From a virus: a stretch of 64,000 nt of DNA. Every line of letters starts with the position of its first letter. Within the stretch, counting starts at the first letter, position 1. The stretch lies in IMG/VR virus record IMGVR_UViG_3300006793_000013, one strand, 5' to 3'. The notes beneath the pieces are model-generated. The model was not told where the DNA came from. It made no database searches and worked only from the letters and a program-made list of their open reading frames with translations. This document shows, one piece after another, positions 1 to 14,983 of the stretch. A program made the translations under genes and the position numbers.

Positions 1-115
1 ACCTAGTTCCGCTCGGTAGAGCAATGTGATCCTCAGTCTCTCAACCTTGAACCTGGGTACCACCCCTAACTAGTCAAGTTCGACCCTTCTGGTAAAGGCC
101 TCTTCCTTGCACTAT
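1..115 (-). ncRNA. Candidate structured RNA, truncated by the window edge
   Basis: No ORF; lies downstream of a sigma70 promoter. Hairpins at 85-98, 55-65 and 11-22; crossing pairs 74-78/46-50 and 68-73/3-8. Family not identified. Confidence 0.4.
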
Positions 116-152
116 AAACAAAAGTCAATTACTCTTTTGTTGCTATATTATT

Positions 153-180
153 AATATAACACAAAATAAGTATTTGTCAA
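153..180 (-). promoter_or_regulatory. Sigma70-type (early) promoter
   Basis: Minus strand TTGACA (180-175), 16-nt spacer, extended -10 TG-T-TATATT (161-153). Confidence 0.65.
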
Positions 181-201
181 CCTATTTCATTTTGGACAAA
201 A

Positions 202-396
202 CTATATGTTATTACTTGAAGTAACAGATATATGTTTTAGTACTTTGCCAGTATTTTCGCCACTTTTTACAGTATATCCACTAGTACCGCTGCCATTAAT
301 GTTTGGCTCAGAACGTGACATCATTAAGATGCGTTCCTTACGAGCTCTCATTTTTGCCTCGCGGTATGTTTTGTGTAAATGATCGAATCTGTTCAT
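202..396 (-). CDS. Small basic hypothetical protein (64 aa) downstream of a glutamine riboswitch
   Basis: Start reassigned from 435 to ATG 396, which follows AAGGAG; ATG 435 lies inside the riboswitch P3 stem. Confidence 0.7.
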   Translation of the reverse strand: MNRFDHLHKTYREAKMRARKERILMMSRSEPNINGSGTSGYTVKSGENTGKVLKHISVTSSNNI

Positions 397-420
397 AACA
401 CCCTCCTTTTTAAAGTTAGG

Positions 421-468
421 TGCGTTCCTTCGCATAATGCTACTTCCGTCCCGATTGGGATGAACGAT
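421..468 (-). promoter_or_regulatory. Glutamine riboswitch (glnA-type three-way junction with E-loop)
   Basis: Minus strand ATCGTTC-A-TCCC-AATC-GGGA-CGGAAGTA-GCA-TTA-TGC-GAAG-GAACG-CA: P1 CGTTC/GAACG, P2, P3 and the CGGAAGTA/GAAG junction strands match the glnA motif as recalled. Confidence 0.85.
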
Positions 469-473
469 ACTAT

Positions 474-479
474 TATTTA
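474..479 (-). promoter_or_regulatory. T4-type late promoter (TAAATA)
   Basis: TAAATA ends 5 nt before the riboswitch 5' end and follows the capsid-gene terminator. Confidence 0.65.
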
Positions 480-484
480 GTCAT

Positions 485-516
485 AAAAAAAGGGCGATAT
501 AAAAATACCGCCCTTT
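485..516 (-). terminator. Rho-independent terminator of the head operon
   Basis: Minus strand GGGCGGTAT-TTTT-ATATCGCCC followed by a T run, ~30 nt after the capsid stop. Confidence 0.8.
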
Positions 517-2831: not shown

Positions 2832-3464
2832 CTACGTTTTATTAAGACTTGAAATGAAGTTTTTCAAGCTCTCTGCTATATATCTTTGTGCCTGTGTGTC
2901 GCCTTGGACTTCTTGTGCCACTTGAAATGCCTTGTAGCCACCTTGTGCATTCATAAGGTGTTCGTAAACTGGTGTTGGATATGCTCCCGGGGCAGATGGT
3001 TGAGCTACAACATCAACAGTAATAATTTCAAATCCTTGAACATTACCATCTCCGTCAACTTCCCCTGAACCTCTGCTTGAGACTCCCAACTTGACTCCTG
3101 ATTCCAACATCGATGAAACAATTTGTCCCATCGGCGTTGGTAACATTTTAAGTTTTCCGTAGCCATTTGGACCATCCATCCACATTTTTGTAATCATGTG
3201 ACTGACCCTGTCCAAATTGATGCGTAAATCTTGTGGGTGATCAACTTCACCTAGCACTGAATACCCCCCAGAAATCTGTTCGTTGAGCGTCTTGACAGCC
3301 CTATCAATTTCTTTAGAAGAATAAACACGCTGATTAGCGTTACGAATGTCACCTTGAATACAGATTCCACTCAAATGTAACGACTTACCGTCCGCCTGCT
3401 CATCACGCTCAATTACGATTTTAGCCTGATCGAAGCTCAGATGTTCTGCTAGTGTAGTTTTCAC
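2832..3464 (-). CDS. gp21: Prohead core protease (gp21 family)
   Basis: GEVDHP, VSH, LGVSSRGSG and DVVAQPSAPGA motifs. Confidence 0.95.
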   Translation of the reverse strand: MKTTLAEHLSFDQAKIVIERDEQADGKSLHLSGICIQGDIRNANQRVYSSKEIDRAVKTLNEQISGGYSVLGEVDHPQDLRINLDRVSHMITKMWMDGPNGYGKLKMLPTPMGQIVSSMLESGVKLGVSSRGSGEVDGDGNVQGFEIITVDVVAQPSAPGAYPTPVYEHLMNAQGGYKAFQVAQEVQGDTQAQRYIAESLKNFISSLNKT

Positions 3465-5372: not shown

Positions 5373-7067
5373 TTAAACTGCAGGTGTTTCTGCTGTTTCT
5401 CCGCCACTTACATCATCAGCAGGAGGTGCTTCAGTTGGTGCTTCTGTTTCTTCAGCTGCGCCGTCTGCTGCCATTCCTGTAGGTGTAACACCCACCGATC
5501 TTAATTCACCGCCTGCGTCTCCAGGCTCTTGTAAATTACCTGCATTTTCTTCTCTCCACAATTTTTCATTTTCTACAATTTCTTCTTGCGTTAATCCTAA
5601 GTAACGCTTCATTGCAAAACGTTTACTTAAATGTGGAATTGCGTCTACAACACTAAAGATGTTCGCTCTAGTAGTATCAAGTTCTGCTTGTCTGTATGCC
5701 GCAAAGTTTTGTGGTGGTTGGAAGTTAATATTAAACAGTGATGCATCAATGTTATAGCCGTTACCGTCTAACCAAAGTTTAAACTCTTTGTCAAACGCTT
5801 CACACATAATGCTTTGAAGTCTTTCACAGTATTTGTTAAATCTTAATTCTTGGATATATGCTGTTCCTACTTTACCGTCTGAAACAGTGTTTGCTTGTTC
5901 ATCAATTGATGTTGGCAAATAACTTGCAGGAATACGTAATGCTCTAAACAGTTTATTTGTAAAATATTTTAAGTCTGTAATTTCACCTAGGTTAGTACCA
6001 CCTGGTAATGTTTCAACTTTAGATCCTCTTCCTTCTGCTGTTTGTGGAAAGAAGTAATCTTCATTGGTTGATAGTGGATTATAACTTGCGTCAATAACAC
6101 TAGTTCCACCGCCTGTCGAACTAGGAATACGTCTTTGTTGGATTTCATTTTTAACTTTTTCAACAAAGCTCATTGCCATGTGTGCAGGCATGTTACCTAC
6201 ATCAACATAAAAAATTCTTCTTTCTGGAGCACGTTGAATTCTATAAATGATAATTGCATCTTCTAGCAATTCTTTTTGCTTGTAAACTTTAAACACACTT
6301 TCGAGTAATGAGTTACCAAAAGGATAATTGTTATCTAATCCTTCTGATAACGAAATGTGTACAATATGTTTTGCGTCTACTGTAATTTCGTTTTGTCCGT
6401 TTTGAAAACGTGTGCCTGTTGGCTGTGCTGCATCACCTACCATGCCACGTGCAAATCCGCCACCGCTTGTATATGAACTTGTTCCGCTTGGTGATGTATT
6501 TGTTGTGCCGTGTGGTGTAGTTGCAACTAAATCTTTAAAATTAAAATTAATATCTTTAATTACATACTGCTCTGGAATCTTTCCTAAAGATTCGTTAACA
6601 ATAATTTTAGAAACTTTTGCGTTATCAATATAAAGTAATTTTTTAGTTTCTGGATCTCTTAAAAAGAATGCATCACCGTACTTGAAAGTGTTACGCACAA
6701 TACGAAACATACGTGTTTCAAACTGTTGCGACTTGCTCCACTTCTGCATTGCTTCTTTAAGAAGTTTAGTTTCAGTGCCGGAAGGTTGTCCTCTAAAGTT
6801 AAAGTTAAAATTACTTAAATTCCCGCTGTCTTTTCCTGTACAAAATTCTGCAAGAATATCTAGTGCTGCGTTTACTTCTGAATCCATATCCATGGTGTCG
6901 TACTGCATGTATTTTTCAATACGGTTTGGACTACCAGCATATACGTCTGGAAGATACGAACTGTAGTTTGAACGTGCAGGACCAGGACGGCCTCCTCCAC
7001 TTATTGGGCTGTAACTACCCGAGTTATTATCAACTGCTACAGGTGTAAAATATTTTTTCCAACTCAT
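5373..7067 (-). CDS. gp20: Portal protein (gp20 family)
   Basis: LLEDAIIIYRIQRAPERRIFYVDVGNMP and EDYFFPQTAEGRGSKVETLPGG motifs. Confidence 0.97.
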   Translation of the reverse strand: MSWKKYFTPVAVDNNSGSYSPISGGGRPGPARSNYSSYLPDVYAGSPNRIEKYMQYDTMDMDSEVNAALDILAEFCTGKDSGNLSNFNFNFRGQPSGTETKLLKEAMQKWSKSQQFETRMFRIVRNTFKYGDAFFLRDPETKKLLYIDNAKVSKIIVNESLGKIPEQYVIKDINFNFKDLVATTPHGTTNTSPSGTSSYTSGGGFARGMVGDAAQPTGTRFQNGQNEITVDAKHIVHISLSEGLDNNYPFGNSLLESVFKVYKQKELLEDAIIIYRIQRAPERRIFYVDVGNMPAHMAMSFVEKVKNEIQQRRIPSSTGGGTSVIDASYNPLSTNEDYFFPQTAEGRGSKVETLPGGTNLGEITDLKYFTNKLFRALRIPASYLPTSIDEQANTVSDGKVGTAYIQELRFNKYCERLQSIMCEAFDKEFKLWLDGNGYNIDASLFNINFQPPQNFAAYRQAELDTTRANIFSVVDAIPHLSKRFAMKRYLGLTQEEIVENEKLWREENAGNLQEPGDAGGELRSVGVTPTGMAADGAAEETEAPTEAPPADDVSGGETAETPAV

Positions 7068-14401: not shown

Positions 14402-14983
14402 GCGTTTTCGCTATCGCTCAACGCACTTGCTTCGCTATTACTTATGTGAAAGTGATTCAGTGTTAAAATTATTTTAACTATTAACTGCGAAGCAGTTTTA
14501 GCATTATCTAGATTGTATGGTCACAATTAGCCCGTTGTCGGGGCCAAAGGTGTGTTTTGAACATTATCTGAGTTCGCACAGTCACAATAGCGTTAGATCT
14601 ACAATGCATTTAATTTTACATAGCGTAGGCGGTTATCCGTTACCTACTCAATCCGTCTTAGTATCTTATGTACAACGGCAGTTTACTATACAAACGCTAA
14701 CTTATATAATAAACCTGCGAGAATTACTCGCTCATTTAGCCTATTTAAATTACTTCTATTAATATACAGCAAACCGGTTCTACGTAGGCGTATCCGATCA
14801 GCGTCCTGTTAAGGATAGTGCTGTTATACCTCTGCCGTTAACCAGAATTCCTTACCGTCACACATCAGAACGGGCTTAGGGCCACATAATTGCGCCGTGG
14901 CGGGCTTATTTAACGGTGTTTGAGCTGTTTTGTTAGCCTTGGGATATATTGTGTATTAGTTGTGGTTCTGTATAAAATGCAAA
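14402..14983 (-). ncRNA. Candidate large structured non-coding RNA (or origin) 3' of the GIY-YIG gene
   Basis: Only large gap in a densely coded window. Nested inverted repeats 14529-36/14869-76, 14674-81/14832-39 and 14766-71/14819-24, plus internal direct repeats. Strand inferred from operon context. Confidence 0.55.

Follow-up and report, generated by a model that had tools for sequence, protein, structure and literature searches.

The window analysed here is a 64,000-nucleotide stretch of viral DNA (IMG/VR record IMGVR_UViG_3300006793_000013). It is part of the genome of an uncultured marine jumbo phage, whose IMG/VR record is 98 kb long and 28% complete according to CheckV. Behind the major capsid gene the window carries a transcription terminator, a box resembling the late promoters of phage T4, a glutamine riboswitch aptamer and a gene for a 64-amino-acid micro-protein, followed by the candidate promoter and the RNA element of the next unit. 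All elements lie on the minus strand, and the coordinates given in an earlier, sequence-only reading of the locus were correct within 2 nt. The features are as follows.

1715 to 543, minus strand: major capsid gene, gp23-type MCP (Pfam Gp23, 335 bits)
516 to 489, minus strand: intrinsic terminator of the capsid gene (12-bp stem with 5 G-C pairs, 4-nt loop, T-run)
480 to 474, minus strand: CTAAATA, a box like that of T4 late promoters (TAAATA at 479 to 474); seen in the sequence, its use as a promoter predicted
468 to 419, minus strand: type-1 glutamine riboswitch aptamer (RF01739, 58.0 bits, gathering score 35, E = 3.5e-10)
466-462/427-423 (P1), 460-457/452-449 (P2) and 440-438/434-432 (P3), minus strand: aptamer stems, from the alignment of 70 leaders
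423 to 398, minus strand: expression-platform hairpin enclosing the Shine-Dalgarno sequence (outer helix G423-U418/G403-U398, inner stem C415-U413/A408-G406)
408 to 401, minus strand: Shine-Dalgarno sequence AAGGAGGG, 4 nt before the AUG, its GGAG block conserved in the alignment
396 to 202, minus strand: 64-aa micro-protein gene (ATG 396 to 394, stop 204 to 202), of the PHROG 32989 / SAR11 micro-protein family
180 to 153, minus strand: sigma-70-like promoter of the next unit (TTGACA, 16 nt, TATATT with TG; 11 of 12 matches)
139 to 1, minus strand: manA RNA (RF01745), 5' part only, cut off by the window edge, coordinates transferred by offset from contig L003

The sigma-70-like promoter bounds the riboswitch unit and lies outside it. 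On the near-identical contig L003, the manA RNA was found at 6213-6417 with 57.9 bits (threshold 55.2).

The phage's 98-kb record stops short of window positions 1-347. The junction at position 347 is bridged by near-identical, independent metagenome contigs, and full-length homologues of the 64-aa ORF exist at 70-95% identity, so the ORF is not a chimaera. The same micro-protein gene was also found on a 195-kb contig. The head module is of the T4 type, with portal, S77 protease, scaffold and gp23 proteins, and its closest DNA relatives are jumbo myoviruses of Gammaproteobacteria (67-70% identity). The marine habitat that had been suggested from the sequence agrees with the recovery of this stretch in the DNA sets of many marine metagenome studies. 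The capsid terminator folds at -19.9 kcal/mol (z = -4.97), and past it follow TAAATA, the aptamer, the Shine-Dalgarno sequence and ATG 396 in that order, in line with the earlier proposal that the riboswitch opens a unit of its own. We consider it quite likely that these elements form a late-gene unit complete in itself, belonging to an uncultured marine jumbo phage whose head genes are of the T4 type.

The type-1 glutamine aptamer class has reportedly been studied by Ames and Breaker in 2011 and by Ren and colleagues in 2015. The compact glnA-type aptamer recognised in the sequence-only reading was recovered by the covariance model of this class at the score listed above. The RF01739 match covers model positions 1-53 of 53 and is thus full length, its 3' end lying 2 nt beyond the earlier estimate of 421-468. 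The Glutamine-II / Downstream-peptide model (RF01704) gave 20.5 bits, below its threshold of 33, on the identical sequence in contig L003. Scanning IMG/VR with the aptamer core yielded more than 119 loci among the matches listed, from which 70 distinct leaders of the non-cyanophage type were aligned with MAFFT. Across these 70 leaders, 28 aptamer columns are invariant. P1 is likewise invariant and paired in 100% of cases, and P2 and P3 show compensatory changes. The covariation score of the whole structure (P2, P3 and the platform helix) was reached in none of 500 shuffles, and sliding the 3' partners lowered the proportion of paired cells from 92% to 37-51%. The three-stem junction bases of the type-1 class definition, ACGGAAGUA and GAAGGAAC, are both present. 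The RNA is almost certainly a genuine glutamine riboswitch and is predicted to bind this ligand. Immediately 3' of P1 lies C422, in a column that is invariant in the 70 distinct phage leaders among the matches listed. According to Ren et al. (2015), in the part quoted by Klahn et al. (2018; PMC6212724), the C at this place forms a ligand-dependent long-range G-C pair. The riboswitch class itself, its tandem copies and its marine occurrence were already known (Weinberg et al. 2010).

CTAAATA lies 9 bases past the terminator and 5 before the aptamer, and the transcription start predicted from it falls at about 468/467, on the first aptamer bases. This spacing fits the late promoter that had been proposed here, as does the recurrence of the same register elsewhere: TAAATA stands 5-8 nt upstream of the aptamer core (CGTTCA) in 43 of the 105 distinct viral leaders listed, with a peak at 6 nt. 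Among the matches listed, it occupies that position in all nine leaders that precede the family of the window's ORF (family A). Upstream of the larger ORFs in the window, TAAATA occurs more often than any other of the 15 hexamers of the same composition (9 of 39), and CTAAATA is under-represented overall (8 occurrences versus 20 expected). The box differs from the T4 consensus TATAAATA, while its TAAATA core agrees and its spacing is right. Taken together, we lean towards CTAAATA being a T4-like late promoter, from which transcription would begin at the first riboswitch base. Contigs from RNA libraries, in which transcript starts are not visible, cover the capsid gene well and the riboswitch and ORF thinly. 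The RNA contigs over the ORF and aptamer partly represent variant relatives with 1-nt deletions.

Between the aptamer and AUG 396 the sequence reads CACCUAACUUUAAAAAGGAGGGUGUU. In the minimum-free-energy fold of the 40 nt past P1 (-10.1 kcal/mol, z = -3.18), GCACC (423 to 419) pairs with GGUGU (402 to 398), and only two bases of the AAGGAGG Shine-Dalgarno sequence remain in an internal loop, the remainder being paired. The GCACC/GGTGT hairpin had been noted as a possible off state; it forms in this fold, covers the ribosome-binding site, and is conserved and covarying in the 70 leaders. Its outer helix is paired in 93.4% of cells, with four of five pairs changed on both sides (70 leaders, among the matches listed); one covarying pair, for example, is C-G 36 times and U-A 27 times. 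Perfect 6-bp pairing between the GCNNNN that follows P1 and the hexamer that stops 1 nt short of the start codon was found in 41 of the 87 distinct leaders listed; when partners were shuffled among loci (2000 shuffles), the mean was 20.6 and the highest value 30. A minimum-free-energy fold in which AUGAAC, at the start codon, pairs with the 5' side of P1 was set aside, as other leaders begin with other codons. No terminator was found 3' of the aptamer at this locus. These patterns of pairing make it very probable that the riboswitch gates translation of the 64-aa ORF.

The platform helix bases G423, C422 and A421 correspond to aptamer model positions 49-51. Because both structures need these three bases, the bound aptamer and the platform helix are predicted to be mutually exclusive. 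Such an arrangement has been proposed for the glutamine riboswitch of gifB in Synechocystis, where expression goes up as glutamine rises: on this model, the ribosome-binding site is held in a helix with the C that follows P1 and the adjoining bases, and glutamine binding melts this helix (Klahn et al. 2018; PMC6212724). As the layout is the same, we read the window element as a translational switch that is probably ON with glutamine. Without glutamine, CACCU and the last G of P1 would pair with GGGUGU between the Shine-Dalgarno sequence and the AUG, and the inner CUU/AAG stem would complete the hairpin, burying the ribosome-binding site and turning translation off. Glutamine binding would draw the conserved C beside P1 into the long-range G-C pair of the aptamer; the platform helix would then open, and the 64-aa protein would be made. 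Like the gifB leader of Synechocystis sp. PCC 6803, the window element belongs to the RF01739 class, is part of the 5' UTR of a gene for a small basic protein and uses the bases just 3' of P1 to pair with the ribosome-binding region. Unlike it, the window switch is carried by a phage, follows a T4-late-like box where gifB has an NtcA-controlled promoter, and has a SAR11-type micro-protein as its target instead of DUF4278/IF17; its polarity is assigned by analogy with gifB.

The choice of ATG 396 as the start of the ORF stands, since the N-terminus that it provides (MNRF/MDRF) is conserved even in bacterial homologues. Two other start codons were rejected: ATG 435 lies inside the P3 loop of the aptamer, and ATG 351, the choice of the gene caller, removes the conserved N-terminus. 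The protein consists of a basic N-terminal helix and a conserved C-terminal tail (NGxGTSGYxVKxGxNxGKVLxH), with R3, R28, G37, T38, G40, K44, G46, H55 and N62 invariant among 18 members at 38-89% identity. It had been described as an unknown protein. A profile search instead places it in a large family common to SAR11 bacteria and their phages: it matches phrog_32989 with E = 6e-6, and its relatives do so with values down to 3e-13. PHROG 32989 is annotated as of unknown function. A library of 1.84 billion proteins contains 130 cluster representatives of the family, nearly all of them 40-110 aa long, and this conservation marks the 64-aa ORF as a real gene. AlphaFold2, run with the family alignment, predicted a helix over residues 3-27 (pLDDT 85-89); mean pLDDT was 64.7, and the conserved tail had low confidence. 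Pfam searches with the 64-aa protein and 17 relatives returned only noise (Crass_capsid, DUF7196), as did a PDB sequence search (E = 1.7), and in the ESM Atlas only unnamed viral clusters were found (0.80-0.83).

We determined where else the family occurs in phage isolates and bacterial genomes. A tblastn search of phage isolates with the window protein itself gave no match; with a central family member as the query, 23 of 24 matches were to Pelagibacter phages. The pelagiphage carriers include all three morphotypes, represented by podoviruses, siphovirus Kolga and myovirus HTVC008M. Among GTDB loci, the best 80 all belonged to Pelagibacterales, including Ca. P. ubique HIMB058, in a scan biased toward SAR11 by its SAR11-like query subset. 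As an unbiased check, a profile derived from phage sequences matched 54 of 81 Pelagibacterales genomes sampled versus none of 150 other Alphaproteobacteria sampled. Synteny at the SAR11 locus holds in 65-69 of 71 cases, so these copies are chromosomal and not prophage. Aligned with hhalign, the phage family and the SAR11 chromosomal family match with 99.5% probability (E = 2e-22, 61 columns), and BLASTP aligned the window protein with the HIMB058 copy at 38% identity (E = 3e-14). Homology identifies the window protein as the phage version of a micro-protein that SAR11 chromosomes and Pelagibacter phages also carry.

The SAR11 copies lie behind a conserved leader of their own, about 90 nt long and containing hairpins, which matched no Rfam family even at E <= 10. 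Rfam searches found no glutamine riboswitch in 20 SAR11 loci, nor ahead of the gene in any of five cultured pelagiphages. Under stricter filters, RF01739 was not found in 41 Pelagibacterales genomes sampled. The phage thus combines a SAR11-type gene with a sensor unseen in the sampled part of that clade. A SAR11 host is plausible, and we judge it to be roughly an even call; if the host is indeed SAR11, the riboswitch sensor was not copied from it.

Three cluster representatives of the family carry an AdoMet_dc-like N-terminus, and one of them is named S-adenosylmethionine/arginine decarboxylase-like. Scanning viral contigs with a fused query retrieved 340 related stretches. The best 80 of these 340 comprised 64 continuous ORFs of about 180-210 aa that join AdoMet_dc to family A, 10 cases of adjacent genes and five of the enzyme alone, a share of fusions that is biased because the loci were retrieved with a fused query. 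Pfam locates the AdoMet_dc domain at residues 21-117 of the fusion. AlphaFold2 modelled this enzyme domain at about 80 pLDDT and the micro-protein part at 45-61. The nearest enzymes from isolates are pelagiphage proteins named 'AdoMetDC', and that of HTVC201P is a pyruvoyl-dependent arginine decarboxylase (Li et al. 2023; PMC9992855). Of the characterised enzymes, that of HTVC201P is closest to the enzyme domain of the fusion, with which it shares a SAR11 phage setting and a nitrogen-rich metabolism. It differs in being 122 aa long with no fused tail, and the text of that paper contains neither 'fusion' nor 'C-terminal extension' (PMC9992855).

The link also extends to the genomic neighbourhood of the riboswitch. 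In three loci (L069, L025 and L091), 15-45 nt separate the end of an AdoMet_dc gene from the glutamine riboswitch and micro-ORF that follow it, and the micro-ORFs at these loci belong to three different families. Six more riboswitch loci have an AdoMet_dc-like gene a few hundred bases upstream. By fusion and neighbourhood, therefore, riboswitch-gated micro-proteins are tied to polyamine-pathway decarboxylases. Unlike the fusions, the window encodes the micro-protein alone, and no AdoMet_dc gene was found in the 98-kb record of the window phage, which covers about 28% of its genome. In cultured pelagiphages the micro-protein gene is neither beside a decarboxylase nor behind a riboswitch. Polyamine synthesis is needed for DNA packaging and translation.

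How the switch works and what it serves could each be read differently. Repression by glutamine would suit glutamine synthetase and ammonium-transporter genes. Many glnA RNAs are indeed listed ahead of such genes by Weinberg et al. (2010), which would favour the opposite polarity, with glutamine stabilising the state that hides the ribosome-binding site, or acting on transcription or RNA stability, and the protein being made in nitrogen shortage. We consider this rather unlikely: the helix competes with the folded, bound aptamer for G423, C422 and A421, the only tested relative with the same layout, gifB, is an ON switch, and the transcriptional version lacks a terminator past the aptamer. A different target was proposed by Buchholz et al. 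(2022; PMC9004378), who reported a glutamine riboswitch from the genomes of pelagimyophages and Melnitz-like phages. They took it to belong to the 3' domain of ssrA, a tmRNA in two pieces, and noted that the host OM43 has no riboswitch of this class. The Melnitz element is 88% identical to that of the window over 73 nt, from the aptamer through the start codon, and at our locus no terminator separates the micro-ORF from the manA RNA, so that the riboswitch might serve a neighbouring RNA gene, either a tmRNA as in Melnitz or the downstream manA RNA, and not the ORF. Against this, no tmRNA or tRNA was found in the window or in L003, and the manA RNA has a near-consensus promoter of its own. Moreover, a Shine-Dalgarno sequence and small ORF with the covarying helix are the constant partner of the aptamer at more than 100 viral loci among the matches listed. 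Melnitz itself has an unannotated 32-codon ORF directly past the aptamer, with the same Shine-Dalgarno sequence and helix. An RNA-gene target is therefore very improbable, and the constant pairing of aptamer, helix and ORF identifies the conserved target of the riboswitch as a small ORF and not a tmRNA. The window phage and Melnitz, a Methylophilales phage, are alike in being marine heterotroph phages with T4-type genes; the switch class is reported to be missing from OM43, the host of Melnitz, and it was unseen here in the 41 SAR11 genomes sampled. They differ in that the window has a small-ORF partner with no tmRNA nearby and in the family of the peptide: hhalign of the window family against the Melnitz-type peptides of about 30 aa gave 1.7% probability, showing no homology to the 32-aa Melnitz product.

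If the small ORF is the target, its product might still act in other ways than with a decarboxylase. The ORF is very short and its structure prediction is poor outside one helix, as might be expected of a leader peptide that acts only in cis and has no function in trans. Yet the protein sequence is conserved between phages and the syntenic chromosomal genes of SAR11, with 38% identity over the full length, and the family occurs without any riboswitch and also as a domain fused to an enzyme, leaving the leader-peptide explanation with hardly any probability. The sequence-only reading had instead pointed to the small basic proteins that inactivate glutamine synthetase in cyanobacteria. This kinship found no support, as DUF4278 (PF14105) matched none of 18 family members even at E <= 1, whereas eight of eight YRG-type peptides behind other phage glutamine riboswitches, used as a positive control, matched it; the YRG motif is absent from all 18. 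A functional analogue of IF7/IF17 that shuts down host glutamine synthetase at high glutamine would share the regulatory logic of gifB, a type-1 glutamine riboswitch with a small basic protein, and in other contigs DUF4278 peptides are indeed found behind phage riboswitches of this class. A comparable case is the RF01704 system of yfr6-type short ORFs in marine picocyanobacteria, where a glutamine aptamer likewise precedes ORFs of 17-100 aa (Weinberg et al. 2010; Klahn et al. 2018), from which the window differs in that its RNA scores below the RF01704 threshold (20.5 versus 33 bits) and in that RF01704 peptides are DUF4278-like. Such an analogue is improbable given the missing DUF4278 signal and YRG motif, the retention of the family in SAR11 chromosomes behind another leader and in pelagiphages without the riboswitch, and a fusion partner that is a decarboxylase, with nothing related to glutamine synthetase.

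The reading that we prefer for the protein starts from the decarboxylase link. As the family is fused to or found beside pyruvoyl decarboxylases of the AdoMet_dc fold, our guess is that the micro-protein is a partner or modulator of arginine or ornithine decarboxylation. It may act with a polyamine-pathway decarboxylase when nitrogen is plentiful, a possibility that we put forward tentatively and with more doubt than belief. In that case, the micro-protein would aid or modulate polyamine supply only in a nitrogen-replete infected cell. A wider and still more speculative generalisation, which we consider unlikely as it stands, is that SAR11 and their phages tie polyamine synthesis to nitrogen status via tiny decarboxylase-regulating proteins, to which the phages add a glutamine riboswitch.

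The locus brings together a known riboswitch class and a known kind of expression platform, in a setting that was published but misread, with a new and unstudied target. Within a limited literature search, we found no published naming of the target family or of its decarboxylase fusion. Riboswitches are uncommon in phages, and the marine case already in print, Melnitz, had been interpreted as control of a tmRNA. A small-ORF target with its ribosome-binding site behind a covarying helix corrects that reading and suggests a simple translational ON switch. The micro-protein that is the target is unstudied, and it is found in SAR11, the most abundant bacteria of the ocean, and in their phages. The decarboxylase fusion is the first functional lead for this micro-protein family. 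If the polyamine lead is true, it would reveal a way in which polyamine supply is linked to nitrogen status in streamlined cells and their viruses, and it would also yield a marker for the hosts of uncultured giant marine phages.

In viral contigs retrieved with a fused AdoMet_dc and micro-protein query, an AdoMet_dc-fold pyruvoyl decarboxylase and the micro-protein family were joined in frame in 51 distinct ORFs of 179-212 aa (L213-L292, the best 80 of 340). Neither 'fusion' nor 'C-terminal extension' was found by a word search of the paper characterising the pelagiphage enzyme (Li et al. 2023, PMC9992855). The decarboxylase gene was also found as a separate ORF at three viral loci that repeat one operon order, in which it is followed after 15-45 nt by a glutamine riboswitch and then a micro-ORF. 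The micro-ORFs of these operons belong to three families that are unrelated to each other.

Decarboxylase fusion and operons
L214, 2042-2620: example of an AdoMet_dc/micro-protein fusion ORF
L025, 5074-5664: AdoMet_dc gene, glutamine riboswitch and micro-ORF
L091, 1985-2440: operon of the same order
L069, 212-800, minus strand: operon of the same order

Elsewhere, on five viral contigs (L059, L080, L101, L115 and L119), tandem pairs of glutamine aptamers spaced by 8-12 nt precede a single small ORF, mostly of the NPFYP-ending and YRG families. In Methylophilales phage Melnitz (MZ577097), an unannotated 32-codon ORF lies directly 3' of the glutamine riboswitch (3070-3168, plus strand), with a Shine-Dalgarno site and the same platform helix as the leader in the window. 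The Melnitz record annotates a 33-aa ORF of the opposite strand in its place, and the tmRNA feature of the record takes in the glutamine aptamer. Folding the whole leader of our phage (window 385-468, minus strand) gives a minimum-free-energy structure in which AUGAAC.GAU, at the start codon, is predicted to pair with the 5' strand of P1 (AUCGUUCAU). In our phage the pairing may contribute to the OFF state; it is not kept in leaders having different first codons.

The phage has four or more catalogued structured RNAs, counting its freshwater-2 and Polynucleobacter-1 RNAs.

Further structured RNAs (L003 is a near-identical metagenome contig)
Window 1-139, minus strand, running on past the window edge; L003 6213-6417: manA RNA (RF01745), 57.9 bits against a threshold of 55.2
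Window 14762-14906, minus strand: Polynucleobacter-1 RNA (RF01718), 67.9 bits
L003 6775-6863, about 420 nt past window position 1: freshwater-2 RNA (RF02980), 73.3 bits

The manA RNA is placed downstream of the micro-ORF and has a separate near-consensus sigma-70-type promoter (180..153); it was absent from the window-wide Rfam scan because the window edge truncates it. Since the IMG/VR record of the phage genome ends 347 nt before the window does (leaving out window positions 1-347), the 3' part of the micro-ORF fell outside whole-genome searches. A 149-aa ORF lies downstream of the freshwater-2 RNA in L003, and a TAAATA box abuts the first base of the Polynucleobacter-1 RNA. Two of these RNAs carry fresh-water names, yet the phage occurs in marine samples.

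Pelagibacter phage HTVC008M carries an unannotated copy of the micro-protein gene (L129, about 1460-1630) that seems divided over two frames, which could reflect a frameshift or a sequencing error. Chromosomal SAR11 copies are preceded by a conserved leader, about 90 nt long (2400-2500 in L159, Ca. P. ubique HIMB058, and the other SAR11 loci L133-L212). Its two hairpins show covariation, and GAUGUG/GUUGCU lies close to the SD. This leader matched no Rfam family and may represent an undescribed cis-regulatory RNA.
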